DNA of 64,000 nucleotides from a virus (UHGV-1364187); one strand, 5' to 3'. Shown: positions 3,562 through 55,231, counted from the first letter of the stretch. The notes: generated from the sequence alone by a model not told the origin. Made by a program: numbers and translations.

Positions 3562-3583
3562 TTATATATTATATATGTGTAAT
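3555..3583 (+). promoter_or_regulatory. Class-B conserved promoter-like motif (TTCAATTATATATTAT..ATGTGTAA), plus orientation.
   Basis: Closely matches the motif found upstream of about a dozen other genes (18071, 41780, 56147 and others, on the minus strand). Confidence 0.45.
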
Positions 3584-3658: not shown

Positions 3659-3751
3659 ATGGGTTATACTTATTACGAATTAGAATTTAGTTATACATCT
3701 TATAGTAGTGAATACTACATAATACCAGCATACATCGTTAAAGAACATTAA
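3659..3751 (+). CDS. Micro-ORF encoding a 30-aa Tyr/Ser-rich peptide (MGYTYYELEFSYTSYSSEYYIIPAYIVKEH).
   Basis: Strong SD (AAGGGAGAG) 7 nt upstream of the ATG. Sits between a class-B promoter motif and a terminator. C-terminal IIPAYIVKEH matches the recurrent terminal motif. Confidence 0.35.
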   Translation: MGYTYYELEFSYTSYSSEYYIIPAYIVKEH

Positions 3752-3771: not shown

Positions 3772-3830
3772 AGGCTACATTGAAAGTATAAGTGATACTT
3801 TATGTAGCCTATATTCTTTTATTTTTTTGT
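3772..3830 (+). terminator. Rho-independent terminator hairpin (AGGCTACAT...ATGTAGCCT) followed by a T-tract.
   Basis: 9-bp perfect stem followed by ATATTCTTTTATTTTTTTG. Confidence 0.6.
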
Positions 3831-3847
3831 ATATATTCTTTATTTTT

Positions 3848-3888
3848 TAACTTATAAGTAATCTAATTCTATTAAAGGAGGAATAAAT
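3848..3888 (+). promoter_or_regulatory. Conserved upstream cassette A1 (TAACTTATAAGTAATCTAATTCTATTAAAGGAGGAATAAAT), promoter-like plus SD.
   Basis: Near-identical copies sit immediately upstream of the ATGs at 4737, 6393, 7274 and 8178, with a partial copy at 9318. Confidence 0.6.
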
Positions 3889-4659
3889 ATGATTTATGCT
3901 ACATGTTTAAATGAACAAACAAATATTATTAACGAAGACTTTACTATGTCACTACTCATAGAAAATTGCGAGTTACAATCTCAAATTATAATGCTTAATG
4001 AAGGATCTATGGTAGATAAATTTGTGAATTTTCTAAATACTATTAAGAATTTCATATCAAACTTTTTTAAAACTATAATCGATAAATTTAGATCATTAAT
4101 TAATAAAACCCCATCAACATCAACAACTAAAGATACCACATCTTCAAATAAAGATGTAAAGCCAAATAAAATTAATAGTATAACATTATATAGCATCAAT
4201 TTAGATGTAGAACTTGATATATTTAATTTGGTTGAAGAAACAGTAAAATGTAAAGATAAGTTTACAACTGAAAAGTTTGTTAATATTGTAAATAAACATT
4301 TAGAAGGATTTAAATACTCATCATTATCAGATATTAAGCCTGATTTATTTATAAAGAAATATGATTATTATAATAATGATGAAAAATTTAAAGACTCAGT
4401 ATTAAAAGATGTAAAAGATATTAAAAATGATATTAATGACATTATAGGGTTATGTAATAGATATATGACTACATATACAAAATGTTTTGATTACGAGATC
4501 AATAATGTTAAAAGTATTAATGATGAATCTGTTATAAATGAAAGAATTAAATGGATAAATTCATGCAAAGATTTAGTAGTAAAATATCTTACAATAGAAT
4601 TAAATGCATGTACTATCATAATGCAAAATCTTAATAGTGTATTACAGAAAGTTAAATAA
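3889..4659 (+). CDS. Hypothetical protein, member 1 of the MIYATCLNEQ paralog family (256 aa).
   Basis: ORF with a cassette-A SD. The N-terminal ~70 aa are nearly identical to the ORFs at 6393 and 7274. Confidence 0.8.
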   Translation: MIYATCLNEQTNIINEDFTMSLLIENCELQSQIIMLNEGSMVDKFVNFLNTIKNFISNFFKTIIDKFRSLINKTPSTSTTKDTTSSNKDVKPNKINSITLYSINLDVELDIFNLVEETVKCKDKFTTEKFVNIVNKHLEGFKYSSLSDIKPDLFIKKYDYYNNDEKFKDSVLKDVKDIKNDINDIIGLCNRYMTTYTKCFDYEINNVKSINDESVINERIKWINSCKDLVVKYLTIELNACTIIMQNLNSVLQKVK

Positions 4660-4666
4660 AATAATT

Positions 4667-4690
4667 AGAGATACTCTATAGAGTATCTCT
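4667..4690 (+). terminator. Perfect 24-nt palindrome hairpin (AGAGATACTCTATAGAGTATCTCT).
   Basis: Seen directly. Variants at 7201 and 8111 show compensatory changes. Confidence 0.5.
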
Positions 4691-4694
4691 AATT

Positions 4695-4736
4695 TAACTT
4701 ATAAGTAATCTAATTACATTAAAGGAGGAATATATC
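4695..4736 (+). promoter_or_regulatory. Conserved upstream cassette A2.
   Basis: TAACTTATAAGTAATCTAATTACATTAAAGGAGGAAT. Confidence 0.6.
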
Positions 4737-6320
4737 ATGCAAGTTGTTCATGAAACAGTTATTAAAGATATAGTAGATATTCTTTCAGATTTAAAAGATA
4801 ATAAATCATTAGAAAATTTACTCAAAAATAGTAAACGTGGTGGAATGAAATCTATCGCTCAAGCAAGTTCAAATCTTACTTTAACTTATCCATGTCTTGT
4901 GTCTAACTCACTAAGTATTGATAGTGTAAGTATGATTTCTAAAGCTATGGAAAGAAAGAATGCACAAATGATTCAGATGTTACTTAGTGCATATCAATCT
5001 AAAAAACTTAATGGTGATGAAGAATTTGATCCTATCAAATATCTTCAAAAATTCCATAAAAACTTGAATATTGATTATAATGTAAGTGTTGATAGTATCT
5101 TAGATACAGTAGATAAAGTTGTTAAATTGGCAGAATCTGCTGGTATGTATGTTGATACTGTTCAATATATTCCAGAATCACAACAAATTAAATATATTAA
5201 AGAACAATCTAAACAAGATAACACTTTACCAGATATGATTAGTGAATCTAGTGTTGCTTCATATAAGATTTCTAAAAATAATATGTTTGGTAAGACTGTT
5301 GTATTACAAGAGAGAACAGATTACACAAATGGGTTAGGATTTAATGATAATAGAAACGATCCTACACTTTTAAATCCAACTGTAACAAGAGATGGTATAG
5401 AAGATGTAGCAAAAGGTGATGATGAATTTTTATCAATTGCAAAAGACTATTGGAATGTTCAGAATGCAATGAATAAGAATAAATACGATACAAATAAAGA
5501 AAGACGAGAAGCAGAAAAACATGAATTTGAAAAACAGAAAAATAATAGAGAAGTAGAAAGAAATAATAGAGAAAGACAAAAACATGGTCTTGGTATTACT
5601 GTAGATAAAGCTAAATATTTAAATACATCACAACAAACAGCACAAGGAAGAATTGCACAATTACAAAATGTAGATGTAAAGAAAGCTAACGAATTAGTAG
5701 GTACTCCTATTATGGTTACAGTTCATGTAACTAATAAAGAAGGATTACTAGATCCAATTTCATTCTTAATTGCTGTAAAATCTAAGATTTACCCATTAGA
5801 CTCTAAAGATATTATCCAAAGAGTTATCACTAAGAATAAAGATAAGAACTTCTTTGGTAAAATTGTTAAAGTTGCTACTGGGGAAATTTCATTTGTTAGA
5901 GATTTCTTATTTGCAATTGACCAAGCTAAATTAGATTCTTTATCTCAATCTAGAAAAGGAAATTCATCTAAACTTTGGAGAGTATTAGAAAGAATGGCTA
6001 TGAAATCTAAATTCTCTAGAGCTATTGGAAAACAAAATGAATATATGGCTATTACTACTCTTGTAATGTCACAAGAAGAAGTAGAGTATATTAAGAAATA
6101 TGCTAATATGGATATGGAAAAAGAAGCAATAGCTAAAGTAATTGTAGATGCGTATAATCTATTGTGTCTTGTTATTGTAGATGAAACTAATGAAACAGCT
6201 AAGTTCTTATTCAATTCAGATCAAGAATTATTTGAAGAATTGAGCTTCAATCAATTAGAAAGAGAAGCTACAGATGGATCATATAGAAAGATGGTAAATC
6301 TTATTACAAAAATGAGATAA
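4737..6320 (+). CDS. Hypothetical protein of 527 aa with a central Lys/Arg/Glu-rich coiled-coil-like segment.
   Basis: Long ORF preceded by the cassette and followed by a hairpin. Confidence 0.8.
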   Translation: MQVVHETVIKDIVDILSDLKDNKSLENLLKNSKRGGMKSIAQASSNLTLTYPCLVSNSLSIDSVSMISKAMERKNAQMIQMLLSAYQSKKLNGDEEFDPIKYLQKFHKNLNIDYNVSVDSILDTVDKVVKLAESAGMYVDTVQYIPESQQIKYIKEQSKQDNTLPDMISESSVASYKISKNNMFGKTVVLQERTDYTNGLGFNDNRNDPTLLNPTVTRDGIEDVAKGDDEFLSIAKDYWNVQNAMNKNKYDTNKERREAEKHEFEKQKNNREVERNNRERQKHGLGITVDKAKYLNTSQQTAQGRIAQLQNVDVKKANELVGTPIMVTVHVTNKEGLLDPISFLIAVKSKIYPLDSKDIIQRVITKNKDKNFFGKIVKVATGEISFVRDFLFAIDQAKLDSLSQSRKGNSSKLWRVLERMAMKSKFSRAIGKQNEYMAITTLVMSQEEVEYIKKYANMDMEKEAIAKVIVDAYNLLCLVIVDETNETAKFLFNSDQELFEELSFNQLEREATDGSYRKMVNLITKMR

Positions 6321-6323
6321 AAA

Positions 6324-6350
6324 AGAATAAGGGATATAATCCCTTATTCT
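6324..6350 (+). terminator. Hairpin (AGAATAAGGG-ATATAAT-CCCTTATTCT).
   Basis: 10-bp stem. Confidence 0.5.
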
Positions 6351-6392
6351 TAACTTATAAAGTAATCTAATTCTATTAAAGGGGGAATAAAT
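6341..6392 (+). promoter_or_regulatory. Conserved upstream cassette A3, with a 1-nt insertion.
   Basis: TAACTTATAAAGTAATCTAATTCTATTAAAGGGGGAATAAAT. Confidence 0.55.
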
Positions 6393-7191
6393 ATGATATA
6401 TGCAACATGTTTAAATGAACAATCAAATGATATCATAAATGAGGATTTTACTATAGAATTGTTAATAGAGAATTGTAACTTACAATCTGAACTTATAATA
6501 TTATCAGAAGGTGCACTTGTAGATAAATTTATAAATGTCTTAAAAACAGTTAAAAAATTCATTTCAAATTTCTTAAAAACGATACTTAATAAATTTATAG
6601 AACTAAAAAATAAAATTTTCAAATCATCACCAAAATCAGATGTTAGAAAACAAGACTCTACAAATAAATTTATAAGAAAAACTAAATCTGTTAAATATGT
6701 TTGTGTAGACAGATCAAAGAAGATAGAAATATATGACATATATCATCAGATAGTTAAAAAAATATAGATAAATACTCTGAAGAAAAATTTTTTGAAGTAG
6801 TAAATTCAAATTCAAAAAATTTAACGATAAATTCATTATCTGATATAACAAAAGAATTATTTTTAACAAAACAAGAAAAGACGTATAATAGAAAAATAGA
6901 GCAATTGTGGCTAGTGGCATGAATGATAGTTGTACAAATACATTTATATCTTACATAAAAGATAGTATGGAAGATATAAATAAAAGTTTTGATAACTGGA
7001 TAGATTATGCTAATATACATTCAAAACGTGTTAACTGGACAGATGAGCAATTATCTAATAATATCATATGGATAAATAAAATTAAAGATTTAACTGTAAA
7101 ATATTATTCAACATTATTGCAAGCGTATAGTATAGAACTAAATGAAATACATATAGCTAAAAAAACTATTGAGAATGATAATGATTTATAG
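6393..7191 (+). pseudogene. Decayed member 2 of the MIYATCLNEQ family, fragmented by frameshifts.
   Basis: The ORF 6393..6767 is the conserved N-terminal domain. The following out-of-frame segment (DKYSEEKFFEVVNSNSKNLTINSLSDITKELF) and the ORF 6907..7191 (IIWINKIKDLTVKYYSTLLQAYSIELNE) align with the middle and C-terminal parts of the 3889 protein. The first break lies in an A7 run. Confidence 0.6.
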
Positions 7192-7200
7192 AAATATATT

Positions 7201-7224
7201 AGAAATACTCTATAGGGTATTTCT
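7201..7224 (+). terminator. Hairpin AGAAATACTCTATAGGGTATTTCT.
   Basis: A variant of the 4667 palindrome in which the paired stem positions changed together (G->A with C->T). Confidence 0.5.
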
Positions 7225-7229
7225 AATAT

Positions 7230-7273
7230 AACTTATAAGTAATCTAATTATTCTATTAAAGGAAGAATTATAA
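7230..7273 (+). promoter_or_regulatory. Conserved upstream cassette A4.
   Basis: TAACTTATAAGTAATCTAATTATTCTATTAAAGGAAGAAT. Confidence 0.55.
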
Positions 7274-7996
7274 ATGATTTATGCAACATGTTTAAATGAA
7301 CAAACGTCTATATTCAATGAAGATTTTGTGACAAATTTATTAATGGAAAATGTACAAATGCAAACTACAATATTAGTTGAAGAAAGTTCTATTATAACAG
7401 AGAATGCTATTAGTGATTTTGTTGGTAAAGTTATTAATTTTATTAAAGAAACTATATCTAAATTTAGAAATTGGATAGTGTCAAAAATTAGTAGTATTAA
7501 AAAAACAATAAAACCAAGATCAAATACATCATCAAATACATCATCAGATAAAACAGTAGAATTGTGGGATGTTAAAGATAATATTTATGAAATAGAAACT
7601 ATAATAGAAGATTCTACAGAAAAAATTTCTAATAAAATATTAAAAAACTATAGTAATATATCAAGTGAAGAATTAGATATTCTTGCTAAAGATATACAAA
7701 AAGCATATTGTGGAACAGAAAATCCAACTTATGAACTATTTATTGTTAAAAAGAGTATTAAATATGACAATACATTAATAAACAAAACAATAACAGAATT
7801 AGATAAAAAATTTGATTATATGAAAGATGTATCAAAGAAGGTAAATATGTCTGGCAATACTATAATAGGAGATTTAAATACATATCTTAAAAAAATAGAT
7901 GGTATAAATAGAAATAATCCTAACGTTCATATGAATACAGATTATATCGATTCTTCAACAAATAGACATAATGCTCAAGAGATGAAAAAAATATAA
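7274..7996 (+). CDS. Hypothetical protein, member 3 of the MIYATCLNEQ family (240 aa) with a divergent C-terminus.
   Basis: ORF behind a cassette. The N-terminal domain is conserved. Confidence 0.8.
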   Translation: MIYATCLNEQTSIFNEDFVTNLLMENVQMQTTILVEESSIITENAISDFVGKVINFIKETISKFRNWIVSKISSIKKTIKPRSNTSSNTSSDKTVELWDVKDNIYEIETIIEDSTEKISNKILKNYSNISSEELDILAKDIQKAYCGTENPTYELFIVKKSIKYDNTLINKTITELDKKFDYMKDVSKKVNMSGNTIIGDLNTYLKKIDGINRNNPNVHMNTDYIDSSTNRHNAQEMKKI

Positions 7997-8110
7997 ATTT
8001 AGCAATAAGAGATTTTCAAAATATGATTCAAGTTGCAACAAATATATCCAATTTAATATTGAAGGCTATAACTATGTGCATTAATCATAACTCATCATTA
8101 TAAAATAATT

Positions 8111-8132
8111 AGAGATACTATAGAGTATCTCT
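8111..8132 (+). terminator. Hairpin AGAGATACTATAGAGTATCTCT.
   Basis: Palindrome. Confidence 0.5.
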
Positions 8133-8138
8133 AATTTA

Positions 8139-8177
8139 ACTTATAAGTAATCTAATTCTATTAAAGGAGGAATTATA
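8139..8177 (+). promoter_or_regulatory. Conserved upstream cassette A5.
   Basis: TAACTTATAAGTAATCTAATTCTATTAAAGGAGGAATTATA. Confidence 0.6.
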
Positions 8178-9197
8178 ATGGAAAGATATTATGAGCCTGT
8201 ATATATGCAAGCTATTAAAGAACATTTTGATCTTAGAGATAGAGAAACACGAAAAATTCTCCTTTCTCTTACAGAAGCAGAAGGCGGTAAAGTTTTAGAA
8301 AGTTTAACTGGTAGACTTTACCAGATGATTATTGATAAAGTAGACGATATTGACTTTGGACTTATTCCTCAATCTAAGGGTGATATTACTAAAGTTGATG
8401 GGGTGGAAAAGCTTTTAGAAGCTTTACAAATTATTTCAGATATTATGGTATCTGCACATCAAGATAAAGGTATTGAGATTGTTCAAACTGTTATTGATTG
8501 TATCAAAAATATTCAAGTTAGAACAGATCTATTCCAAAAAGCTTATGCTTTAAATCTTGAAATTCCTATTACTATTTATAATACAATGGTATTAGCTGTA
8601 TTTGATGCTACATCATATATGATTGTAAATACAATAGACTTTATTAAAGATCCTGGAACAAATTCTTTTGAAGCTGTTGTTGTGAATAATAATATCAAAA
8701 AGACTAAACAATCTTTAGTTATGAAGAATATTATTAGTTTTAATGAAGCTTGTAGAAAAGGTGATATTGATAAAACAATTCAATCTATTATTGATGCTAA
8801 AGCTAGAGGATTTGCAGTATCAACTATTGGAGTATCTATAGTTGCAGCTGGAACATTATTAACTTTAATTATACCTATTATTAGAGAATTGATTTACTTA
8901 TATTATCATGCTAGAGTATCTATGAACGATTATCTTACAGTACAGGCAGATCTTATTCAGATGAATATTACTGGTCTTGAATTAAATGATTCTATCGATC
9001 AAGAAAAGAGAGAAAGAATCATTAAGAAACAAGCTAGTATTGCTGAAAGATTACGTAAACTTGCTAATGTAATTGAAGTTAAAGAGAAGAAAGCTGAGAA
9101 TAAAACTATTTCAACAATCAATAGTGAAAATAGACAATATAAGTTCAACGAAATCCAAGATGAATTACCAGATTCTGCTGTTGCTTCATTATTCTAA
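8178..9197 (+). CDS. Hypothetical protein of 339 aa with one predicted transmembrane segment (AVSTIGVSIVAAGTLLTLIIPII).
   Basis: ORF behind a cassette. Contains an LTEAEGG motif. Confidence 0.8.
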   Translation: MERYYEPVYMQAIKEHFDLRDRETRKILLSLTEAEGGKVLESLTGRLYQMIIDKVDDIDFGLIPQSKGDITKVDGVEKLLEALQIISDIMVSAHQDKGIEIVQTVIDCIKNIQVRTDLFQKAYALNLEIPITIYNTMVLAVFDATSYMIVNTIDFIKDPGTNSFEAVVVNNNIKKTKQSLVMKNIISFNEACRKGDIDKTIQSIIDAKARGFAVSTIGVSIVAAGTLLTLIIPIIRELIYLYYHARVSMNDYLTVQADLIQMNITGLELNDSIDQEKRERIIKKQASIAERLRKLANVIEVKEKKAENKTISTINSENRQYKFNEIQDELPDSAVASLF

Positions 9198-9202
9198 AAT
9201 TT

Positions 9203-9233
9203 AGAAGTGAATAGATATACTCTATTCACTTCT
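9203..9233 (+). terminator. Hairpin AGAAGTGAATAG...CTATTCACTTCT.
   Basis: 12-bp stem. Confidence 0.5.
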
Positions 9234-9317
9234 AATTTAATCACGTTTCTTTTTACTTCTATAAACATATAAATAATGCTATAAGCAAAAACTAACCTTA
9301 TTAAAGGAGGAATTATA

Positions 9318-10463
9318 ATGGTATTTAATAGTATTTTACAAGAAAATACTCATTTTGATCAAGAAGAAGTTTGTGAAGCTGTTACTGGATATGAAGGATC
9401 AGTAGGTGCTACACAATCTCTTATTGAAGCAGCAGAAATGAGCCAAACTATTTTTGAAGAACTTATCAATATTGATTTCGCCGAAGCAGCTCTTAATCAC
9501 AATATTGCTGGTGTTACTGAAAGTACAGTAGAAGCATTAATTGAAGCTGAGGGAGAAGGCGGTCAAAGTATTGGTCAACGTATTGTAGATGCAATCAAAA
9601 AATTATGGAGTATGTTTACAAACTTCGTAACTAATGTTGTAAATACAATTAAAACATATTTAGCTAGAGACCTTAAGAAATTAGTTGAAAATTCAACTCT
9701 TAAATCTCCAGAAGAATTAGCTAAAATTACTTTAAAGAAATATACAAAATATGACTTTAGTCAATTTACTAAACGTTCATCTTTAAGTGTCCCTAGTTAT
9801 GAAAATATGGACAAAGAAAAAATTACAAAAGCTCAAAAAGATCTTAAAGATAAGAACTTTACAGCAGGACTTATTAAATCATTTTCTGGTATCGATGCTT
9901 TCAGTATCAAAGACTTCGTAGATAGAGCTAGAAAAGCAGCTACTATTAGTCAAGAAAATGTAAAAGTAAGTGAAGTTATTAGCGATGCTAAAGAAGTTCT
10001 AACAACTAGTGGTAGAACTTTAGAAGCTATTAAATCACAAAAGAAAGCAGCAGATAAAACTTATAAAGAAGCTGTTTCTAAAGTAAAAACAAAAAGATCA
10101 GAAGTTAGAAAACATGGCGAATATGTTGCTAACGATCCATCTGGAAATACAACTAAAGTTAAAGTAGACAACAAAGATACATATGCAGCAGGTTGTGCTT
10201 GTACATTATCTTATATGAAAGTTGTACACAACATTGAGATGGCTGATATTAAACTTATGCAACAATTAGCACAAAAACAAATTGCACAAGCTAAAGCTAT
10301 CTTCATTAAAGCTACTGGTAAAAAAGCAAAAGAAGAAGCTACTAATGAATCAGCACTAGTATATGAAGAAGCATTATTAGAAGCATGTGAATATGAAACA
10401 GAAGTTGACATGGATGAAATTTCTCAAGAAGTTTCAGACAATGGAAATGAAGAAATTGCTTAA
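9318..10463 (+). CDS. Hypothetical protein of 381 aa, distantly related to the 10488 product.
   Basis: ORF with a partial cassette (AAAGGAGGAATTATAATG). Contains ALIEAEGEGG and SLIEAAE motifs. Confidence 0.8.
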   Translation: MVFNSILQENTHFDQEEVCEAVTGYEGSVGATQSLIEAAEMSQTIFEELINIDFAEAALNHNIAGVTESTVEALIEAEGEGGQSIGQRIVDAIKKLWSMFTNFVTNVVNTIKTYLARDLKKLVENSTLKSPEELAKITLKKYTKYDFSQFTKRSSLSVPSYENMDKEKITKAQKDLKDKNFTAGLIKSFSGIDAFSIKDFVDRARKAATISQENVKVSEVISDAKEVLTTSGRTLEAIKSQKKAADKTYKEAVSKVKTKRSEVRKHGEYVANDPSGNTTKVKVDNKDTYAAGCACTLSYMKVVHNIEMADIKLMQQLAQKQIAQAKAIFIKATGKKAKEEATNESALVYEEALLEACEYETEVDMDEISQEVSDNGNEEIA

Positions 10464-10487
10464 TTCAATTTAAAGGAGGAATTATCA

Positions 10488-11558
10488 ATGATTTATGATA
10501 AATTTACAAGCGTTATAGAAGGATCTACAGATTACGTAGCTGATATTACTATGGATTCAGTAGAAGAAAGTGCATACGAACCTACTATGGAAGGAACATT
10601 AATGCATCTTTTAGAAGCTGAAGAAAACTGGAATCAAATCCAAGAAGCCATCGCATTTTCAGAATTAAAAGGATTCATGGAATCTGGTGATCCTGAATAT
10701 GTATTAGAAGCAGAACAATCAGAAGGTATGTTCACTACAGTAATTAACTGGTTTAAGAGCATGTTAGCTAAGATTGCTGCTATCTTAAAGAAATTCGTAA
10801 ACTATATGGCTAGTAAAGTAGCTTCAGATAAACAATTCATTAAAAAATTTGAATCAATTAAAGGAGACTTAGTTATTCCTAGTGGATTTAAATTCAAAGG
10901 ATTCAACTTTAGTTTCAATTATGATTTAGCTACAGGTAACTCTAAAATGACAAGTATTATTGATTCAACTTTCAATAGAGCACCTGGAAACAATAGTGCT
11001 AGTGAAATTAAATCTGTAACAGATCAAATTAAATCTGGTAAAAAATCTTTCTCTGCCAAATTACGTGCAGCAGCTTTAGGAAAATCAGGTAATATGGAAG
11101 AAAAAGAATTTAGAACTGAATTAAAGAAAATGTTCAGATCAAACTCTGCAACACCTACACAAATTTCAGTTTCTAAATCAGATATTGATAAATACTTTAA
11201 TTGTGTATCAAGTCATAAAGATGCTGTTAAAATGGCAAAAGATAACTTAAAGAAATTTAAGGATATTACAAACAGTAGCATCGATATGGTAAAAACTACA
11301 AAAGAACATATTAAAGATACAAAAGATAAGAAAGATCGTTCAGCGTATATGACATATTGTAACATGAAAATTTCTGCTTACAAAGAGAAATATACAATCT
11401 TATCTCGTGTAAATGGTGCTCTTATTGATGCACTTAATCAACAAAATCGTCAAGCAAAATCTGTTCTTTATGCTATCAATGGTAGACAAAAGACAAAATT
11501 TGATGAATCTACTATCGTAAGTGGTGGTACATTCTTTGACAATATTGTAATGGATTAG
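10488..11558 (+). CDS. Hypothetical protein of 356 aa.
   Basis: ORF with SD AAAGGAGGAATTATCAATG. Contains HLLEAEENW and YVLEAEQSEG motifs. Confidence 0.8.
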   Translation: MIYDKFTSVIEGSTDYVADITMDSVEESAYEPTMEGTLMHLLEAEENWNQIQEAIAFSELKGFMESGDPEYVLEAEQSEGMFTTVINWFKSMLAKIAAILKKFVNYMASKVASDKQFIKKFESIKGDLVIPSGFKFKGFNFSFNYDLATGNSKMTSIIDSTFNRAPGNNSASEIKSVTDQIKSGKKSFSAKLRAAALGKSGNMEEKEFRTELKKMFRSNSATPTQISVSKSDIDKYFNCVSSHKDAVKMAKDNLKKFKDITNSSIDMVKTTKEHIKDTKDKKDRSAYMTYCNMKISAYKEKYTILSRVNGALIDALNQQNRQAKSVLYAINGRQKTKFDESTIVSGGTFFDNIVMD

Positions 11559-11560
11559 TA

Positions 11561-11600
11561 AAAATATAGATACACTCTTAATGGGTGTATCTATATTTTT
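11561..11600 (+). terminator. Hairpin AAAAATATAGATACAC...GTGTATCTATATTTTT.
   Basis: 16-bp stem flanked by A and T tracts. Confidence 0.6.
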
Positions 11601-11647
11601 CATTGGTTAACTTCTTAATAATATATTCTATAAAGGAGGAATTTAAT

Positions 11648-12673
11648 ATGTATAATCTTAATAATATAAATTTTAAGAATGTACAAAGTAATATTTCATT
11701 TACATCAAACGTAAATGAAAGTTATACATCATCAGCATTATCATTTATGCAATCTATAAATGAAGAGAACAACGAAAACTTAGCAACAATGGCAAAAAAT
11801 ATAGTAAACGGAATGAATATTACAGAAGCTGCTAATCTATTCTGCAAATCAACTGAGATTATTATTGATAAATCTACAGATATGATGGGTAAAATGATTA
11901 ATTCATTTACTAAAGAATTAGATCAGTATTTCTCAGAAAGAAAACAGTTTATCAGTAATATCGAAAGTGTAAAAGATAGAACAGATGAATTAGCGAAGTC
12001 TGCTCTTACTATAGAAGGATTCTTCTATACAGAAATGAAACAACCAAATATATTACTTGCATCTGAATTTAAAGAAGGATATTCAGATTTATTAAGTAAA
12101 TCTCCAGATAGTGTATTCAATGGGTTGTCTAGAAAATATATGGATTCTTATCTAGATAAGATTAGAGCTAAAACTATTTTATTAGATGGTCAAGTTTCAT
12201 ACAAACTGTTTAGAGATAAAGTATTTGGTTTCTATAGAAATAATACAACTAAAGAAACCATTGCAGTTTATAAAGAAGCTCAGATAGCAGATATTATTAG
12301 AAAGTATCTTGATCATAAAGTATATATAGAAAATCTTAACGAATTATATGAAGATATTCTATCTCAAGCATCAGAAGTAAAAAGATGTATAGAATTATTA
12401 ACAGAAGATCTATGTACTATGGAAACTATTAATAATGTAGTATATGGTAAATCAAATAAATTTGTTGATATGAATGGATTAGTTACAGAAGGATTTAATG
12501 AAGCTATATCAGCAATAACTAAAAAGAAAATGACATTAGTTCAAGATTTCATGGCTATATATTTATTATTAGTATCAGATAAGATTAGTGCTATGAAATC
12601 ATCTATTAACCAAAATACTGTTCTTTTAGATAGTTTTTACAACATGATTATGTTAGGAGAGGGTGAACAATAA
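11648..12673 (+). CDS. Hypothetical protein of ~341 aa, with the start moved to the SD-supported ATG.
   Basis: AAAGGAGGAATTTAATATG. The ATG at 11585 in the ORF track lies inside the terminator. Confidence 0.75.
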   Translation: MYNLNNINFKNVQSNISFTSNVNESYTSSALSFMQSINEENNENLATMAKNIVNGMNITEAANLFCKSTEIIIDKSTDMMGKMINSFTKELDQYFSERKQFISNIESVKDRTDELAKSALTIEGFFYTEMKQPNILLASEFKEGYSDLLSKSPDSVFNGLSRKYMDSYLDKIRAKTILLDGQVSYKLFRDKVFGFYRNNTTKETIAVYKEAQIADIIRKYLDHKVYIENLNELYEDILSQASEVKRCIELLTEDLCTMETINNVVYGKSNKFVDMNGLVTEGFNEAISAITKKKMTLVQDFMAIYLLLVSDKISAMKSSINQNTVLLDSFYNMIMLGEGEQ

Positions 12674-14439
12674 TGGTATTTTACACAGATTATGTATTAG
12701 AAGAAACTCAATATATTATTTATGAATTTAATAGAATGATGAATAATGCAATTACAAAAGCTAAACTTGATGAAGCTGATATTATTATGAGGGCTAAAGA
12801 AGTGTTATGTGAAAATGAAGTGATATTAGAGGGAGACTTTATAGATAAGATTAAAACTAATCTATTTGGTGCTCAGACAACTGGGAGGTATGATTTAGTA
12901 AAAGAGAAACTAATCAAAAATGTAAACAGATTGCAAACGCCACAACAAGTAGATCTTATTATGGCATCTATTCCAGGAGGTGTACAATATGTAAAAAATC
13001 AGATGGAAACGCATCCAGAATATGAAAAACAAATGAAAGAATATATCAAATGGTTACAAGGAGATTTTAAAATCTATCTTAAAGGAAAGAAAAAAGAATT
13101 ACAACATTCTATAGCAGAAACTGGGTTAGAGTGGGATGAATATCTAGAAATGATTGTACAAGAAAGTGAACTTGGTGACAGAATTATGTCACATATCCCT
13201 GGTGGAACATTACAAACTGGTAGATTTGATTTATTAAGACCTAAATTATTAAAATTAGCTAAGAAAGCTAAAGATATGAAACGTATCCAATATCTAAGAA
13301 AAGATGCATCTATTGCAAAAAGAACACTTCAGACATTAAAGAAAAATAAACCAGAATTTAAAGATCAAATAGATTCACATCTTAAATGGTTAGATACAGA
13401 ATATAAACAAGCATTGAACGATAGAGCAAAAGAAATTAGAAACTCTGTAAATGAAGCATCATTCGAAGAAATCTCACTAATTCAAGAAGCTGCTAAAGAT
13501 ACTATTGTTAAAGCAATAGATTGGTTAATCAATAAGATTAAAGAACTATGGGCTAAATTTTTTGGAAGAAAAGCAGATAGAGATTCTAAAGCTAAATGGT
13601 TGAAGGATAATAGAAATGCTATTCTAAACAACGGATTCAAAGGATCTAAAGAAATGCCAGAATTCTGGAAATATGACTCATTGAATGATAAAGTTGTCAA
13701 TTCATTTCCAAAATTTGATTATGCTTCTATGAAACCTAATTTATCATCTGATGATTCATTCATTAATGCTTACTTTAAAGATTTATATCAGGATGGTAAA
13801 TCATATGTAGATGTATTAAAAACAAAACTATATGGAGAAAAGAATGCAGTATTAAAAGATGGTCAAGTTCCAATAAAGAATATGTTTGATTTCTGTACTA
13901 ATGCTTATGTACAAAAAACTAGAGCATTAGAAAATATTCATAATGCATGTGTATCAGCTGCAGAACAATTTAAAAATGATATTAATAATGGTAAAGTAAA
14001 AATCGAAGAATCATCTGTAGTGTTTGAAAGATATTTCTATAGTTATCTTATGGAATCTGTTATATATGAAGCTGATCTTGCTAAAGATACTCAAACAGAT
14101 CAACAACAAACACAGACAACAGACACAAAAAATACAAATAATAATACTACAACAAACAATACACCTACACCAGATGATCAAAAGAAAGCTGAAGCTAATA
14201 AATCTAAAGTTGAAAATGATAGAGCGGTAGAAGCTCAAAAACTTATATCAAGATATTTATCAATCACTAATAATATTAAAGGTACATTGATGAAATATTT
14301 GGAAGATAAATTTGATACTTATTTCGCCGTATTAATGCAACATGCAAAAACTAATGGTGTAAAAACAAAACCAGAAGCCGCTAAGAAAGAAGACAATACA
14401 GAACAAAATAATACAAATAAAGAACAACAAACAAAATAA
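12673..14439 (+). CDS. Hypothetical protein of 588 aa with internal repeats (SIPGGVQYV and SHIPGGTLQTG) and a Thr/Asn/Gln-rich low-complexity tail.
   Basis: ORF whose start overlaps the upstream stop (TAATGG). SD GGAGAGGGTG. Confidence 0.8.
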   Translation: MVFYTDYVLEETQYIIYEFNRMMNNAITKAKLDEADIIMRAKEVLCENEVILEGDFIDKIKTNLFGAQTTGRYDLVKEKLIKNVNRLQTPQQVDLIMASIPGGVQYVKNQMETHPEYEKQMKEYIKWLQGDFKIYLKGKKKELQHSIAETGLEWDEYLEMIVQESELGDRIMSHIPGGTLQTGRFDLLRPKLLKLAKKAKDMKRIQYLRKDASIAKRTLQTLKKNKPEFKDQIDSHLKWLDTEYKQALNDRAKEIRNSVNEASFEEISLIQEAAKDTIVKAIDWLINKIKELWAKFFGRKADRDSKAKWLKDNRNAILNNGFKGSKEMPEFWKYDSLNDKVVNSFPKFDYASMKPNLSSDDSFINAYFKDLYQDGKSYVDVLKTKLYGEKNAVLKDGQVPIKNMFDFCTNAYVQKTRALENIHNACVSAAEQFKNDINNGKVKIEESSVVFERYFYSYLMESVIYEADLAKDTQTDQQQTQTTDTKNTNNNTTTNNTPTPDDQKKAEANKSKVENDRAVEAQKLISRYLSITNNIKGTLMKYLEDKFDTYFAVLMQHAKTNGVKTKPEAAKKEDNTEQNNTNKEQQTK

Positions 14440-14443
14440 AATA

Positions 14444-14478
14444 AACTAGAAGAGTTTAATTACTCTTCTAGTTTTTTA
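14444..14478. terminator. Bidirectional terminator between convergent genes (AACTAGAAGAG...CTCTTCTAGTT).
   Basis: 11-bp stem with an A-tract upstream and a T-tract downstream. Confidence 0.65.
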
Positions 14479-20314: not shown

Positions 20315-23300
20315 CTATCTTTTAAATAATCTCTTAGTGAGATCTATAGCAGTATTTAATGTATTTCTAGATATAGTAAGATTATCAGGATTATATGGAG
20401 TATCTCTTATATATTCACTAAAGTTAAATGTATTATCTCTAGTCCCCACATACTTCATATATTTATTGAAATCATTTAATATTCTAGCTCTAATATCTAC
20501 AAATTCTTTACGTTCCTGCTTTGTCATTTTATTTATTTTCTCTTCTATTCTAGTATTAATAAACCATAACTTACATAGTTCATATTTCATTCCATCTATA
20601 TTGCCTACTTTCTCATATGACATTAGTAATTTATGTGATTTATTAAACTCTTGTTGAAAATCTATCTTCTTATTAAGAATTAAATCACCTTTATCGTTAA
20701 TAGATATCTTTGATTCAGCTTCTAACAATGAAGATTCTTTCCTTTTACTTTTAATAACTTCAACTAATCTATCCGATGCAATTTTTCTATTATGAGAATT
20801 GAATTCTAATAAAGGATTCCATCCTAAAGCTTTAATAATATTCTCATCTTTTTCAACCTTAAGTCTATTTGACCAAGCTGTTTCATAATGTTCATTATAA
20901 GCAACTTCACCATTACATCTTTTAGTATAATAATCAAACCATTCTTTTATGGTTACATTATCATTTAATATATCTTCATCATCCATTACTGTTATAGTAT
21001 CAGCAATTTCATCTGGATGATAAAATCCATCCTGTGATGTTTCCCAAGGAATCTCTGTTTCTTCTAGAATAATATTTTGTTTATAATCAAATTCCACATT
21101 ATCTAAATAATCTCTCATTTTATTATTCTTTCCTATTTTGATTTTTACTCCATGTCTCATTGAAGCTACACATATAGCATTACATAATTTATTCATATAC
21201 TTTTTATCACATTTATTGAACCATCTTACTGCTTGTATAACATGTTCTTTATCAATAAGAGGATATTTTCTTTCTTCTGGAATTCCAAAGTCGTCATCTT
21301 TAAGAGCATTTCTTTCTTTAGTTGAAAGATCAGCTTCTGTTAAATAATCACATACATTTATTCCAGTAATATCATCTGTTTTAGATAAGTCTTCACATTC
21401 ATCATCAGAATGTAAATAATTTGATAATAGATGAGATGATTCGTTGTGTATATATGCATGTATACTAATATCTTTATTATACTGTAACTCTCCATCTAAT
21501 GTAATATAATCTGTAAGTTTGCTTCCATATGTAGGAATATTATACATTCCTAATTCAATAATTCTCTTTTTGATATTATCAGCTAATTCTTGTTTATATT
21601 CATCTTTACAGTGATTAAAACAATTAGCGATAATTTGTATTACATCATTTGGTGTTTGTAGTGGATATTTTCTTTGTTCTGGTAGACCATATACTTCTAT
21701 AACTCTATCAAAGTTCTTATATAATTCTCCACATTTATAACAAATTCCAGTATTATTCCAATCATCTTCTGTATATATAAGTGCATCACATTTATTACAT
21801 TTATAATGACTACCAATTGACATTTCTTCTGTTATTGCACATTCTTCATTTATAGAAGATTTCATCTTATTTTTTACTATATTAGCAATAATGTTCATAT
21901 CTTTAATCATATCATCTACTTTAAATCCACTTGGTTTAAATCCTATGTCATTTTTCTCTGATAAATTTATAATATATTTACTAGCCCATTCTAGTCCATC
22001 TTTAGTATGTTTTCTATGAAGCTCTTTTTCAAATACTTCTATAGATTGAAGACATTTTTCCCAATCGGATTTCTTATTACTCTTTAATGCTTTTCTAATA
22101 GCTGAATTTGGATCTGGTAAATTTGGACTAAAGAATTCTCTTACTTCCATAATATTAGCTTCATTTAATACAGTTCCATCTTTATTGATTTTCTTAATCC
22201 ATTTCCAATTCCATCTATATAATTCAGCTTCATATTCATTATCAGGACCATATTTATATTTCATACCCTCTTCGTGAGCATCTTCAACCTTAATATCTCC
22301 TATATATTTTAATTTTACACTATTAGTTATCCATACTTCATTAGTAATATTACAATCTGGTACTTGATAAACTGATGGTTTTACTTGTTTTATATTATCC
22401 ATAACTATTTCGTGTACACATAATGTCTTACCTTTAAGATTCATACTCATTGCTGTTAAACATCCGTTTATACTTGTAGAACAGCATACTCTACATGTAG
22501 TATTATCTTCGTATCCATTTTTAGTAAGAAAATTATCTGGTACTATTGGATTTAATATAACTCCATCCATATTTGTTGAAGATACAAAGAATAGTTTTTT
22601 ATAGTCACATTTTGTTTGTCTATGTTCTTTTGGTACTCTATGATCTTCTACCCATTCTTCCGCATATACTTGTCGTTGTATTGTATTTAATTCAATATAA
22701 GACTCCATAATATTTCTTTTAAGTTTTCTTATATTACTTTTTACTTTAGATTCTTTATAATCATTTATCTTCCCTTCATATACTTTATATACAACATTAG
22801 AAGTTGCAAATTCTTGTGGTCTTACTAATGCTGAATCTTTTTGATTTACATTTACCCCACCAAGCTTTAACATAGAATCAACAAATTGAGAACAAAACAT
22901 TTTATCATCTCTATTGATTGGTTTATTTAATAATACTCCGAATAATCCAAGAATACTATATGAATATTCTTTAATATGATCTATAAAGTATTGGATCTGT
23001 TGTTTTATTTTTTCTATGTTTATCTTTGGTATTAATACACAGAATACTCCAATATTAATATTACCAAATTTCTTTTTAAACATATCGAAAGACTCTTTAA
23101 CAAATCCATCGAAATTAAAACTAAATATATTATTCATCTTTGCATCAAATGATAATGATACATGTGTGTAATCATCTCCAGTAAAAGCTCTAATAGTTTT
23201 AGACATTATAGAACCAGTAGTAGTCAATAATATATATACTGGTGATAATTCATCATTATTATTAGATTCATTAATAGTAACTTCTTGTGTTAAATCTAGA

Positions 23301-36377: not shown

Positions 36378-36398
36378 ATATTTAAGGAGAGTGTTTAG

Positions 36399-49951: not shown

Positions 49952-51682
49952 TTAGAATCCTTTACTATTAAGGATTGTAACACGTCCTTGTACTGGTTGA
50001 TATTCATAGAATTTCCAACGATCAAATGCATGAATTGCTGGTAATGTTGGGTTAGCAGCATTTCTAATATCATTTGCAATGTAAAGTTGGTAATCGTATA
50101 CCATGTACATAATTCTGTTTGTTCCTCTTGGTTTAAGAAGGATAATAAGGTCATCTGGATTATTTCCATTTCCTGACCAATGACCTGTATTAAGGTTTTT
50201 ACGAATTTTATCTGTAGAGATGAATTCATATCTACGGTTATCTGTTGTAACAACAGTTTTCTTGAAGTCTAATGCAACTCCACCTTGAGTAGTATTAGAA
50301 CCTGTTGTATATGTGATTGGCATTGTTTTACGAATTAAATCAGTTCTACCAATTACAGTGATATCCACGTTTGGATCGTTCCAAACCTGGATCATGTCTG
50401 TTGCTAATGTATCTAACTGATCCATGAATAAGTCATGTCTCCATTGAACTGGAGAACTAGATAAGTATCCACCTTTTAATGCAAAATCAATAGAATCACT
50501 GAATTTTTGTGATTTATGTAATGTTGCATATGATTTATCAAGTTCTTGTTTGATAGAGTCATCTTTCCAGTTACCCATTACGTCTTTAATCATAGACATA
50601 AGTTTAGTAAGTTGGTTTACTCCATAAAGAGCTTGAACGTCTTTGATTTCTTCTGGAGATACAGGAATGTTAATAGGAATTGATGTACCAATTTCTACTA
50701 AGCTTTCTTCTGTTTTCCATTTTACACTACATGTATTTACTAAGCCATTAGAAGTATCTTTTCTAGCTGTAAGTCTAATAGCTTTAATATTTCCTCCAGT
50801 ACAATGAGCAACTAATTGGTCATTGTATAACATAGCTGATAAGTAATCTCCTACTGGTTCAGCATCTGGATGTTGATCTGCACAAACGTCGTTTGTGATT
50901 TTGATTGTTTCATTAACATAACGTTTTTCACCATCACCATAACCTGGTGTAAAGCCATAATTTACATCAATCCAAACATCTGCAGTAACAGCTGGAGTTA
51001 GAATACTACCCATAGTGTCATATACAGGTGGTGTTGTAATAACAGTTGCTAAGATACCAGAAATATATGATTCAACAGCGATATGATCTTGAGCACCAGC
51101 ACCAATAGCATCAATAAGATTTGTTGTTGCTTGTTCTGGTAAAGTCATTTCGATAGTTTTGAATGGAACTGTTGAATCGAAAGCATCTTTGATAGCACTT
51201 TGTTCATAGAATAAATCAATTTCTTTTCCATCTGGTGTTGTCATGAAACGTTTTTCCATAGTGATAGTAAATTTAGGAGTATTAGCTACACCACGAGAAA
51301 TACCACCATTATCAAATACGTTGTTCATCATGAAATATTTATGCATTGGAAAAGCCATACCAATAACAGGGTTGAAAGTTGCTAAGTTACCAGCAGCTTC
51401 AAGTACACCTTGACGGTCGTTTTCAAATAATTGATTCATGTCTTCTTCATGTTCATTCATAGCAACAGGATCTAATTCTTCTGTTGTAGAATCTTCAACG
51501 AAGAATTCACGTAGAGCACTATAAGCATCTTCCCTTTGACAAATTTTTGCACTTTCTGAAAAGAAATCAACTTGTGATTCATTCATGATATCACCGATTA
51601 CACGTGCAAATTTTTGTGCATATGGTTGTAATGCTGTTGAAGAAAAACTAAATTTGTTATCTTTATTTTTACCAAAGATCAT
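49952..51682 (-). CDS. Putative major capsid protein of 576 aa.
   Basis: Lies immediately downstream of an acidic, coiled-coil scaffold-like gene and near the gp21-like protease. Noticeably higher GC and less extreme codon usage than its neighbours. Candidate propeptide cleavage site GVLE/AAGNLATF at about residue 96. Confidence 0.5.
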   Translation of the reverse strand: MIFGKNKDNKFSFSSTALQPYAQKFARVIGDIMNESQVDFFSESAKICQREDAYSALREFFVEDSTTEELDPVAMNEHEEDMNQLFENDRQGVLEAAGNLATFNPVIGMAFPMHKYFMMNNVFDNGGISRGVANTPKFTITMEKRFMTTPDGKEIDLFYEQSAIKDAFDSTVPFKTIEMTLPEQATTNLIDAIGAGAQDHIAVESYISGILATVITTPPVYDTMGSILTPAVTADVWIDVNYGFTPGYGDGEKRYVNETIKITNDVCADQHPDAEPVGDYLSAMLYNDQLVAHCTGGNIKAIRLTARKDTSNGLVNTCSVKWKTEESLVEIGTSIPINIPVSPEEIKDVQALYGVNQLTKLMSMIKDVMGNWKDDSIKQELDKSYATLHKSQKFSDSIDFALKGGYLSSSPVQWRHDLFMDQLDTLATDMIQVWNDPNVDITVIGRTDLIRKTMPITYTTGSNTTQGGVALDFKKTVVTTDNRRYEFISTDKIRKNLNTGHWSGNGNNPDDLIILLKPRGTNRIMYMVYDYQLYIANDIRNAANPTLPAIHAFDRWKFYEYQPVQGRVTILNSKGF

Positions 51683-54427: not shown

Positions 54428-55231
54428 ATGGTAAACAATATAGGATATATGATCTGTGAAGTAGCATCTTCAGAAGCTAGAAAACCTGTTATCGTTGATA
54501 GGGTAAACGATCGTGTAGTAATAGAAGCTATTTTACAAGATCTTAATATTAAAAATAGAAATGGCAGATATTATTCAACAGAAGAACTAATACCTCAATT
54601 AACATGTGAAAGAACAATGGAACTTCTTAATGCAAATGGTATTCCTGGTGAAGCTGGTCATCCATTAGCAAAAGATTTAGTACGTCAACAATCTATAGAC
54701 CCAATGAGGGTAAGCCATTATATAACAAAATTATGGCATGATAGAAATGATATTAAAGGTCATGTTAGAGCAGCCAGAGGTCAAGCTGGTGATTTATTTA
54801 ATGATACAGTTCTTGATGGCATTAAAATGGCATTCTCATTAAGAGCACTAGGTACAGTTGTTAATACAAAAAATGGTGCAGAAGTTAAAAATATTAAAGT
54901 AATTACATGGGACTGGGTGTATTATCCATCGCACAAACGTGCATATCAAACTGGTATTGTTACTGAATCATCTATAATGAATGATGAACAAAATGGTGTT
55001 ACTGGATTATTTACACCATTTAATACAAAACAGGTAATAAACTTTATTAAAGAATCATCATGTAATTTCAAAACTATAACAGAATCTTTTGAATTTTTAT
55101 ATAAAGATATTACCATGATAGATCCTAAACATGTACAACTTGTAGCTGATAGTGGTGAAGTTGTAGTTTGTAAACTAGAAGATCATGTAAGTAATGAAAT
55201 TATGTCATATTGTAGAGGATTTAAATACTAA
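54428..55231 (+). CDS. Prohead core protease, T4 gp21-like.
   Basis: IPGEAGHP matches ILGELNHP of T4 gp21, FSLRALGTV matches VSLRGYG, and ...NRNGRYYSTEEL matches ...NRRRYPADVW. 267 aa. Confidence 0.55.
   Translation: MVNNIGYMICEVASSEARKPVIVDRVNDRVVIEAILQDLNIKNRNGRYYSTEELIPQLTCERTMELLNANGIPGEAGHPLAKDLVRQQSIDPMRVSHYITKLWHDRNDIKGHVRAARGQAGDLFNDTVLDGIKMAFSLRALGTVVNTKNGAEVKNIKVITWDWVYYPSHKRAYQTGIVTESSIMNDEQNGVTGLFTPFNTKQVINFIKESSCNFKTITESFEFLYKDITMIDPKHVQLVADSGEVVVCKLEDHVSNEIMSYCRGFKY

Follow-up and report, generated by a model that had tools for sequence, protein, structure and literature searches.

The gene array considered here occupies positions 3848 to 14478, on the plus strand, of a stretch of viral DNA of 64,000 nucleotides (nt), UHGV-1364187; the whole of this stretch is referred to below as the window, and all coordinates are counted from its first letter. 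The array comprises nine open reading frames (ORFs), eight of them intact and the ninth, g3a, accompanied by an extra fragment, g3b. Seven of the nine genes, one of them dead, are paralogs belonging to a single fast-diverging superfamily. Judged by homology and gene order, the array is the expanded counterpart of the gp213-gp216 cluster of virion protein genes in Bacillus phage AR9, and the window is part of an AR9/PBS1-like jumbo phage genome of roughly 256 kb: proteins identical to its capsid protein and to the array product g7 were found on a metagenomic contig of 256,505 bp. The G+C content of the window is 26%, neither tRNA genes nor Rfam families were found across its 64 kb, and a megablast search of the array against 50,697 phage records gave no nucleotide match. 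Gut and environmental metagenomes are rich in jumbo phages of the AR9/PBS1 group, whose head assembly is, to our knowledge, almost unstudied.

Genes, promoters and hairpins of the array

The array genes are listed below, with lengths in amino acids (aa) and E-values from family hidden Markov models (HMMs); here and throughout, a slash marks a candidate cleavage position after Glu.

3889..4659, plus strand: g1, 256 aa, short paralog; MIYATCLNE tag, acidic 38-aa N-terminal part, MLNE/GS, amphipathic helix; family HMM E = 4.3e-6
4737..6320, plus strand: g2, 527 aa; homolog of AR9 RefSeq gp213 (virion structural protein)
6393..7191, plus strand: g3, g1-type pseudogene; pieces 6393-6758, 6767-6877 and 6985-7134, colinear, in three frames
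7274..7996, plus strand: g4, 240 aa, g1-type paralog; former C-terminal end possibly out of frame at 8023-8106
8178..9197, plus strand: g5, 339 aa; homolog of AR9 RefSeq gp214 (virion structural protein), all-helical
9318..10463, plus strand: g6, 381-aa paralog; MVFNSILQE tag, 76-aa N-terminal part with charge -15, sites SLIE/AAE and ALIE/AEGEGG
10488..11558, plus strand: g7, 356-aa paralog; MIYDKFTSVIE tag, sites HLLE/AEE and YVLE/AEQ, basic body (charge +20, isoelectric point (pI) 9.7)
11648..12673, plus strand: g8, 341-aa paralog; no early aliphatic-x-Glu, NITE/AAN at residue 60; HMM E = 3e-9
12673..14439, plus strand: g9, 588-aa paralog; MVFYTDYVLEE tag, N-terminal region of ~260 aa, LIQE/AAKD at residue 272 followed by an amphipathic helix

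The two pieces g3a (6393-6767) and g3b (6907-7191) are remnants of a single decayed gene, colinear with g1 over three reading frames; its promoter is damaged and its Shine-Dalgarno sequence weakened. Another member, g4, may have lost its C-terminal end through a frameshift.

A preliminary description of this locus had counted ten individually punctuated genes with one promoter each. The promoters and hairpins on which that count was based are real, but they delimit seven transcription units rather than ten, because g7 and g9 have neither a promoter nor a hairpin of their own. The units are thus mono- or bicistronic (g6-g7 and g8-g9 being the bicistronic ones), each with an AAC[A/T]-N6-TA motif and a hairpin at its end. 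Five of them begin with a common upstream module, as had been noticed earlier: the 20-mer AACTTATAAGTAATCTAATT is present in four exact copies in the 64 kb, every one within the array, against 0.16 expected, and a fifth copy of the module, at 6351, carries a 1-nt insertion. The modules and the two further candidate late promoters are:

3848..3884, plus strand: module copy 1; late promoter AACTTATAAGTA at 3849-3860 with predicted start at A3860, 5' untranslated region (UTR), Shine-Dalgarno sequence
4695..4731, plus strand: module copy 2; late promoter at 4696-4707
6351..6388, plus strand: module copy 3, degenerate; 1-nt insertion in the promoter spacer (AACTTATAAAGTA), Shine-Dalgarno sequence weakened (AAGGGGG)
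7229..7269, plus strand: module copy 4; late promoter at 7230-7241
8137..8173, plus strand: module copy 5; late promoter at 8138-8149
9264..9275, plus strand: late promoter AACATATAAATA of the g6-g7 unit; exact AR9 consensus, conserved in relatives and in AR9
11609..11620, plus strand: late promoter AACTTCTTAATA of the g8-g9 unit

The module is more than a Shine-Dalgarno leader. It carries AACT-TATAAG-TA, 40-44 nt 5' of the start codon, and AACT-N6-TA is a one-base variant of the late promoter of the AR9 non-virion RNA polymerase (nvRNAP). At the AR9 promoters of this type transcripts start at the terminal A or G, and uracils in the template strand are required. AR9 late genes are transcribed by this phage-encoded enzyme from AACA-N6-TA/G (PMC5312081, PMC7598289), and 41 of 43 AR9 virion protein genes are late (PMC5312081). 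In the window, AAC[AT]-N6-TA lies 39-54 nt upstream of g1, g2, g4, g5, g6 and g8, in the AACT form at g1, g2, g4, g5 and g8 and as the exact AACA consensus at g6, and it is also found 38-54 nt 5' of the genes for the capsid protein, the prohead protease and others. The pattern is short, with 1.9 matches per kb overall, and it is its position relative to genes that carries weight. The array copies resemble the AR9 late promoters in spacing, in their T/A-rich flanks and in their location, each after the hairpin of the upstream unit and 5' of structural genes; they differ in the T that replaces A at the fourth position in most of them, as well as in several other copies in the window. From motif and position together we infer that the cassettes are late units. 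Sigma-70-like sites were not enriched in a scan of the window (80 found, 85 expected).

Strong stem-loops, eight in all (z-scores from -4.4 to -9.4), are found after a small ORF upstream of the array and after g1, g2, g3, g4, g5, g7 and g9:

3772..3810, plus strand: terminator-like hairpin at the boundary between the small ORF and the array; -17.6 kcal/mol, z = -4.4
4663..4694, plus strand: palindromic terminator hairpin, copy A; z = -5.5
6323..6351, plus strand: terminator hairpin after g2; z = -4.5
7195..7230, plus strand: palindromic terminator hairpin, copy B; z = -6.1, pair-preserving changes relative to copy A
8107..8136, plus strand: palindromic terminator hairpin, copy C; z = -5.5
9201..9235, plus strand: terminator hairpin after g5; z = -9.4
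11556..11605, plus strand: terminator hairpin after g7; z = -8.9
14443..14474, unstranded: hairpin between the convergent g9 (plus strand) and a 398-aa gene (minus strand); z = -5.5

Copies A, B and C are variants of one palindrome. Between A and B there are two double changes that preserve pairing and one change from U-A to U-G, in agreement with the compensatory substitutions that had been proposed for these stems.

Homologs in AR9/PBS1-group phages and turnover of the paralogs

The products of g2 and g5 match adjacent genes of the Bacillus phages AR9, PBS1 and BpSp, and in AR9 both are annotated as virion structural proteins. Matches to g2 extend to jumbo phages of Staphylococcus, Listeria and Fusobacterium. 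The same label, virion structural protein, is carried by the PHROG families to which the two proteins belong (g2 to phrog_23804, E = 3e-26; g5 to phrog_23545, E = 2.9e-31), and tblastn to AR9 and PBS1 gave E = 1e-15 and 3e-17. A further annotated virion protein of AR9, RefSeq gp215, matches the HMM of the g6/g7 family (E = 1.1e-10) and is a member of the paralog superfamily. The earlier suggestion that the products are virion proteins finds support in these annotations. The flanking minus-strand genes are syntenic as well, the upstream gene corresponding to gp212 and two downstream genes to gp217 and gp219. The locus, with the same flanking genes, was found in three more metagenomic contigs and in 80 jumbo-phage contigs of IMG/VR, where it holds 3 to 10 plus-strand genes, and AR9 and ~80 metagenomic loci retain the arrangement of g2 followed by g5 and then the paralogs. 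A scan of IMG/VR with the single g5 protein gave no match; these loci were recovered by an alignment-based scan.

The AR9/PBS1 cluster (gp213, gp214, gp215 and gp216) therefore provides direct homologs in the same order, with the same flanks and with AACA-N6-TA late promoters, and its gp215 and gp216 carry the sequences ...LTLE/AEM and ...ILE/AEM, like the sites in the window. It differs from the array in size (four genes, against nine with a pseudogene here), in having no counterparts of the extra g1-type short paralogs or of the five homogenised promoter-UTR modules, and in the absence of the MIY/MVF tag. The presence of these proteins in virions is known for AR9, from its annotation and from PMC5312081.

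Single-linkage clustering by BLAST places four of the paralogs, g6 to g9, in one group of 109 array proteins. Family HMMs were built from relatives only, without window sequences, and searched against the 59 proteins of the window. The first recovered g7 (3.6e-59), g6 (5.5e-22) and g1 (4.3e-6), with g4 and g3a marginal; the second recovered g9 (1.7e-33), g8 (3e-9) and g3a (1e-3). The family alignments share one architecture: an N-terminal tag leads into a variable acidic stretch, conserved Glu columns lie at about residues 38 and 64-72, and an amphipathic helix rich in Lys and Phe comes before the body, which is helical and often basic. No array product has a Pfam match above cut-off; none of the ten products matches PF12699, the inner-body family of phiKZ, at E up to 0.1, and neither Pfam nor PHROG links them to families of internal head proteins or tail proteins. 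AlphaFold models are helical. The g5 model, with a predicted local distance difference test (pLDDT) score of 78, has a conserved hydrophobic helix at residues 217-244. In the g7 model, which rests on a shallow alignment (a word-indexed homolog search gave 7 matches), residues 1-110 are of low confidence and residues 110-335 form a confident helical domain. Sequence searches of the PDB, together with Foldseek searches of g5 and g7 against it, returned nothing under E = 0.06 and generic helical bundles only, and Foldseek against BFVD returned family members only.

That the locus would prove variable across related phages, and contain a paralog family with a decaying copy, had been anticipated, and the comparison bears both expectations out. 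Identity to the closest relative is 31-45% for the paralogs, 56-60% for g2 and g5 and 61-70% for the flanking genes; the number of paralogs per genome is 7 here and 1-6 in relatives, with array size ranging from 3 to 10 genes. The g1 subfamily has four matches among 1.84 billion representative proteins, and two or three of these are the phage's own genes. The closest relative (L002) has a 45-nt promoter-UTR module of its own, TTTTTTAACTTTATAGTAATCATATTATATAAGGAGGAATTAAA, at 6420-6467, 7227-7274 and 9953-10000, nearly identical in three copies that precede the first paralog, g2 and g5, i.e. the same three genes. Module copies from one genome thus resemble each other more than they resemble those of another genome, a pattern that suggests within-genome homogenisation, or concerted evolution. 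A lineage-specific set of this kind could have arisen by duplication of whole cassettes (promoter, UTR and tag-coding region), together with pseudogenisation and rapid divergence.

Several observations concern individual members. In the g5 family, the hydrophobic helix is followed by a conserved P-I-x-R-E-L-I-Y-F-F-Y, and the C-terminus ...P-D-S-A-x(2-5)-[SG]-[LI]-F is also conserved. The g5 homologs in L008, L012, L016, L017 and L041 are 517-687 aa long, and many homologs (proteins P0025-P0110) have 180-350 extra residues; in the locus copies examined these are N-terminal, starting with MAIFS, MAIYS or MPIFS and continuing to ...[IL]-[LM]-N-E, so that a tag of the paralog type is grafted onto an unrelated family. 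Residues ~60-270 of g9 contain, by eye, two tandem repeats of ~100 aa, TTGRYDLVKEKL...HPEYEKQMKEYIKWL and QTGRFDLLRPKL...KPEFKDQIDSHLKWL; a 451-aa protein of a relative (L003_11101) matches g9 residues 69-177 and 170-290, partly overlapping, and this is compatible with tandem repeats.

N-terminal tags, Glu motifs and the prohead protease

The preliminary description had pointed to an aliphatic-x-Glu tripeptide near the start of almost every array product. The observation largely stands: 8 of the 9 array proteins and 8 of the 50 other window proteins have [LIVMF]-x-E (h-x-E) with its Glu at residue 6-16 (Fisher p = 4.5e-5), and the array figure is 6 of 7 when the three recent paralogs are collapsed (p = 5e-4). 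The N-terminal peptides MIYATCLNE, MVFNSILQE, MIYDKFTSVIE and MVFYTDYVLE end in this motif, as do 48% of those of the relatives' paralogs. It has to be amended in four respects. The motif is missing from g8; the candidate cleavage sites that are best conserved are found not at 9-15 but near residues 38 and 64-75 (272 in g9), beside the amphipathic helix; the N-terminus MQAIKE assigned to g5 is mistaken, as the protein starts at MERYYEPVYMQAIKE; and MIYATCLNE, although present three times, occurs in recent duplicates within a set in which seven of nine genes are paralogs, so that the resemblance partly reflects shared ancestry. The internal L-x-E-A-E motifs that had been singled out are, by contrast, clearly in excess, with eight instances of [LIVMF]-x-E-A-[AE] in the array against a shuffle mean of 0.61 (0 of 1000 shuffles reached 8). 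Outside the array there are two in 13,930 residues, one in the capsid protein and one in a 1002-aa protein.

Across relatives, the most conserved N-terminal feature is the tag M-(G/A/S/P)-[ILV]-[YF], also in the form M-(G)-[ILV]-[YF]-[STN], which is found in 40% of 149 de-duplicated array paralogs and in 3% of 460 neighbouring proteins (p = 3e-29). Synonymous variation in the codons of the tag points to constraint on the protein. With G, A, S or P as residue 2 the initiator Met is probably removed, in which case MGIYS and MIYAT would show the same x-[ILV]-[YF] at the free N-terminus. Candidate sites of the form [LIVMF]-x-E-[AGSN] are concentrated at the beginning of the chain, their density over residues 1-100 of array paralogs being 29.6 per 1000, compared with 6.6 over the remainder and with 7.6 and 4.9 in controls. 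At conserved Glu columns, at least 88% of the Glu-bearing sequences (22/25 up to 29/29) have I, V, L or M at position P3 (the h of the motif), and P1', the residue after Glu, is A, G, S or N; A-x-E is confined to some g6-type relatives. Over the first 75 residues the charge has a median of -6 (controls -1; p = 5e-18), while the predicted mature parts of g1, g2, g4, g6, g7 and g9 have pI values of 8.5-9.7, the cut sites themselves being predicted. Comparable sites are conserved beyond the paralogs: the g2 family has [IV]-H-E/T near its N-terminus, and the g5 family has a nearly invariant E15 and an invariant E33 (SLTE/AEGG). In the array proteins of Staphylococcus phage SA1, too, an h-x-E/[AS] site is followed by a helix.

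An enzyme that could use such sites is encoded in the window, as is a capsid protein with sites of the same kind:

54428..55231, plus strand: prohead protease of the T4 gp21 / phiKZ gp175 type; late promoter 41 nt upstream
49952..51682, minus strand: major capsid protein; GVLE95/AAGN directly before the conserved NPVIGM fold core

The gp21-like protease named in the preliminary description is confirmed by matches to Peptidase_S77 (PF03420; E = 3.4e-11, 43.4 bits against a cut-off of 27) and to Peptidase_S80 (E = 1.2e-9, above the Pfam cut-off). Proteases of the gp21/gp175 family cleave after Glu in a short motif (PMC9026906, PMC10052503). In the capsid protein, all four h-x-E/small sites are within the first 100 residues; E95 is invariant in 30 diverse homologs, with V or I at P3 throughout. 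The capsid protein of PBS1 has a predicted mass of 58.9 kDa and runs at ~50 kDa, i.e. ~9 kDa lower (PMC5646251), a shift that fits the loss of roughly 80-95 residues. A significant excess of the motif within the window is limited to g6, g7 and g9 (g8 more weakly), the protease and a scaffold-like protein of 616 aa, which, as circumstantial evidence, is the pattern that would be expected of a set of protease substrates.

The capsid protein has a second conserved site, I-L-x-E/S, near residue 36, and its N-terminus, M-P-[VIT]-[VI]-G-x-R, is strongly conserved among homologs (P0121-P0240, L089-L168), with that of the window phage and a few others lacking the Pro (MIFG, MIIG). The 616-aa protein is encoded between the capsid and protease genes (52468-54327, minus strand; 616-619 aa); it resembles a coiled coil, is rich in charge, includes the acidic stretch DDELDDDWDDDF, has eight h-x-E/small sites against 3.6 expected and no family match, and is a candidate scaffold or core protein. 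The 1002-aa protein (20315-23323, minus strand) starts with MILDNVGFLDLTQE and has a ClpP/crotonase-like N-terminal region (phrog_1128, residues 22-171) and a DUF6582 match. Its SLLE/AES at residue 866 is the sole h-x-E-A-[AE] beyond the array and the capsid protein, and it could be a further protease substrate or itself protease-like.

A proposed role in prohead assembly and the competing explanations

We consider it probable, with moderate confidence, that the array encodes late virion proteins, most plausibly internal to the head, which are made as precursors and have their acidic N-termini trimmed by the S77/S80 prohead protease. Each paralog precursor would begin with a short tag and an acidic propeptide of ~35-75 residues (~270 in g9); an amphipathic helix rich in Lys and Phe would come next, ahead of a body that is helical and mostly basic. 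The propeptide would carry the protein into the assembling prohead, where the protease would cut after Glu at several places, recognising [ILVM]-x-E followed by A, G, S or N, the same motif by which the capsid protein would be matured at VLE95/AAG. Basic mature parts would then remain in the head with the DNA, and some proteins, for example g5 with its hydrophobic helix, may exit with the DNA at infection. A broader form of this proposal is a good deal more tentative: the tag and the acidic, Glu-site-rich linker may constitute a capsid-targeting propeptide, not described before, that is shared by a large and for the most part uncultured clade of AR9-like jumbo phages, and the array a diversifying arsenal of head-packaged proteins co-injected with the DNA, some of which would, like T4 IPI, counter host defences or take part in early takeover.

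Two known systems offer parallels. In T4, gp21 cuts the internal proteins after Glu and also trims the capsid protein, and the mature internal proteins are basic, poorly conserved and variable between related phages (PMC9026906, PMC5694885). The array shares with T4 IPI, IPII, IPIII and Alt a short N-terminal peptide ending in [L/I]-x-E and an encoded S77 protease (PMC9026906, PMC5694885). Its products differ from the T4 internal proteins in lacking any similarity of sequence or fold, in size (240-588 aa as opposed to 8-20 kDa) and in having longer predicted propeptides with several sites and another tag sequence. With phiKZ, 201phi2-1 and SPN3US the phage has in common its jumbo genome, two multisubunit RNA polymerases, an S80 protease and paralogs variable in copy number (PMC5694885, PMC10052503). 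In the phiKZ-type paralog family A (PF12699), long N-terminal propeptides are cut at several Glu sites by gp175/gp245 (PMC5694885, PMC10052503). Unlike in phiKZ and SPN3US, PF12699 is undetected here and P3 is I, V, L or M instead of A, S or G; unlike the phiKZ-type families, the genes form one contiguous array of cassettes with promoters and terminators of their own. We regard the array as probably analogous, and not homologous, to the T4 internal proteins and to the ejection-protein paralogs of phiKZ and SPN3US. A literature search returned no description of processing, targeting, cleavage sites or packaging signals for proteins of the AR9/PBS1 group.

A number of observations weigh against the proposed processing and head location. 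Searches of Pfam, PHROG, the PDB and Foldseek gave no link of fold or sequence to the T4 internal proteins or to PF12699. The motif had been derived from the array itself prior to counting; its occurrence is independent only in the capsid protein and in relatives, and the related sequences are not phylogenetically independent, which makes the p-values optimistic. The MGIY-type tag is absent from the AR9, Staphylococcus and Listeria phage members. Nor is the pattern fully specific, as a tag-like MIVPATISEE is found on a homolog of the non-virion RNA polymerase subunit. The predicted mature parts of g5 and g8 are acidic (pI 5.1-5.3). Close relatives of g7 conserve the entire N-terminal region and not the sites alone, so that the conserved Glu could be structural. 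Most cassettes depart from the AR9 consensus at the fourth base of the promoter, with T for A. Finally, AR9 g215 in the numbering of the original paper is continuously expressed and not strictly late (PMC5312081); given a one-gene offset between that numbering and RefSeq, this would be the homolog of g5.

Among the alternatives, it is conceivable, if doubtful, that the paralogs are components of a prohead core or scaffold, which fill and shape the large prohead, are largely degraded by the protease and have no role after ejection; their diversity would then reflect weak constraint and not an arms race. The products are indeed helical and coiled-coil-like, with an acidic N-terminal part and an amphipathic helix, many candidate sites are present per protein, as in T4 gp22, gp67 and gp68, and T4 IPIII also aids head morphogenesis (PMC9026906); the scaffold-like 616-aa protein shows a similar motif excess. 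On the other hand, the AR9 homologs are present in mature virions, the candidate sites are concentrated in the first 100 residues and not spread over the whole chain, and well-folded C-terminal domains are conserved within subfamilies.

Rather unlikely, in our judgement, is that the products are structural proteins that are never cleaved, the motifs and tag being inherited structural or folding features and the capsid match coincidental. In its favour, seven of nine genes are paralogous, so that shared motifs can be inherited, close g7 relatives conserve all of the N-terminal 100 residues, a tag-like N-terminus is carried by a non-virion protein, and ~80% of the head proteins of SPN3US are uncleaved (PMC10052503). 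The motif is, however, also conserved in the unrelated g5 and g2 families and coincides with an invariant capsid-protein Glu where maturation would be expected, its P3 and P1' preferences fit the after-Glu cleavage rule of the protease family (PMC9026906), and a well-folded basic body contrasts with an acidic N-terminal part modelled at low confidence. If the products were merely unprocessed structural parts, the locus would still be a clear case of cassette duplication, promoter homogenisation and gene decay.

A location outside the head, as components of the tail, baseplate or neck and hence not as substrates of the prohead protease, seems to us improbable. It would be compatible with the AR9 annotation, which says virion structural protein only, and no fold assignment puts the proteins in the head. 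The flanking minus-strand genes also encode virion proteins, and one relative's copy weakly matches a tail-tube family of Pfam; PHROG annotation of these flanking genes gave no decision between head and tail. The Glu-motif signature is nevertheless common to the capsid protein, the protease and the scaffold-like protein, internal head proteins typically combine an acidic propeptide with a basic body (PMC9026906), and similarity to any tail protein family was not detected in Pfam or PHROG.

The last alternative, an early host-takeover module of non-structural effectors transcribed right after infection, which the preliminary description had kept in reserve, is rejected as very improbable: it could appeal to an early-promoter-like core at 3563, 5' of the array, and to the continuous expression of AR9 g215 (by the numbering offset, the g5 homolog), but that core is separated from g1 by a strong hairpin, a late-type promoter precedes each unit and the homologs in AR9 are virion proteins.

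If the proposal of head-packaged, protease-trimmed precursors is correct, the principle known from T4 and phiKZ, that of a removable N-terminal loading peptide combined with fast diversification, would reach a third lineage. The locus yields a putative recognition rule for the protease ([ILVM]-x-E with A, G, S or N next), a possible targeting tag and a defined, fast-evolving family of virion proteins. These would provide a handle for spotting injected proteins and for engineering the packaging of cargo. On the broader and more tentative form of the proposal, the tag could be used to load foreign proteins into very large capsids.

The remaining observations concern early-type promoters and the genes near them. 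Two features are located upstream of the array, outside the cassettes:

3563..3572, plus strand: early-promoter-like core TATATATTAT of the AR9 early type, 5' of a tiny ORF
3659..3751, plus strand: 30-aa ORF (MGYTYYELEF...) upstream of the array; the first gene of relatives at this place encodes 62-117 aa and is poorly conserved

AR9 has an annotated early promoter at the place syntenic to 3563. In the array region, the only plus-strand cores of this type are those at 3563 and at 12710, the latter inside the coding sequence of g9, and a motif scan found no early promoter directly upstream of any array gene. Elsewhere in the window, an AR9-early-like core, ATATATTAT, precedes the genes for an nvRNAP subunit, the primase and other presumed early functions. 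A motif of the approximate form A-W-T-M-ATATATTATA-(4-6 nt)-TG is positioned 25-45 nt 5' of the start codons of replication and transcription genes (e.g. 42391-44016, 40044-41057, 28048-28491, 24050-24421, 36208-36378, 48447-48599 and 58951-59772), and its 10-mer core has 24 matches in the window against 12.7 expected; this A-W-T-M-ATATATTATA-type motif is probably the phage's early promoter, used by the virion RNA polymerase. The gene at 42391-44016 (minus strand) encodes a homolog of the promoter-specificity subunit of the nvRNAP, matching the AR9 'non-virion RNAP subunit' and phrog_25005. The protein starting with MIVPATISEE was considered as a subunit of the virion RNA polymerase, an assignment rejected on its homology to the non-virion subunit. 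A GroEL-like chaperonin is encoded near the nvRNAP subunit gene (44920-46617, minus strand), and the AR9 order of primase, RNA polymerase subunit, one gene and chaperonin is kept.

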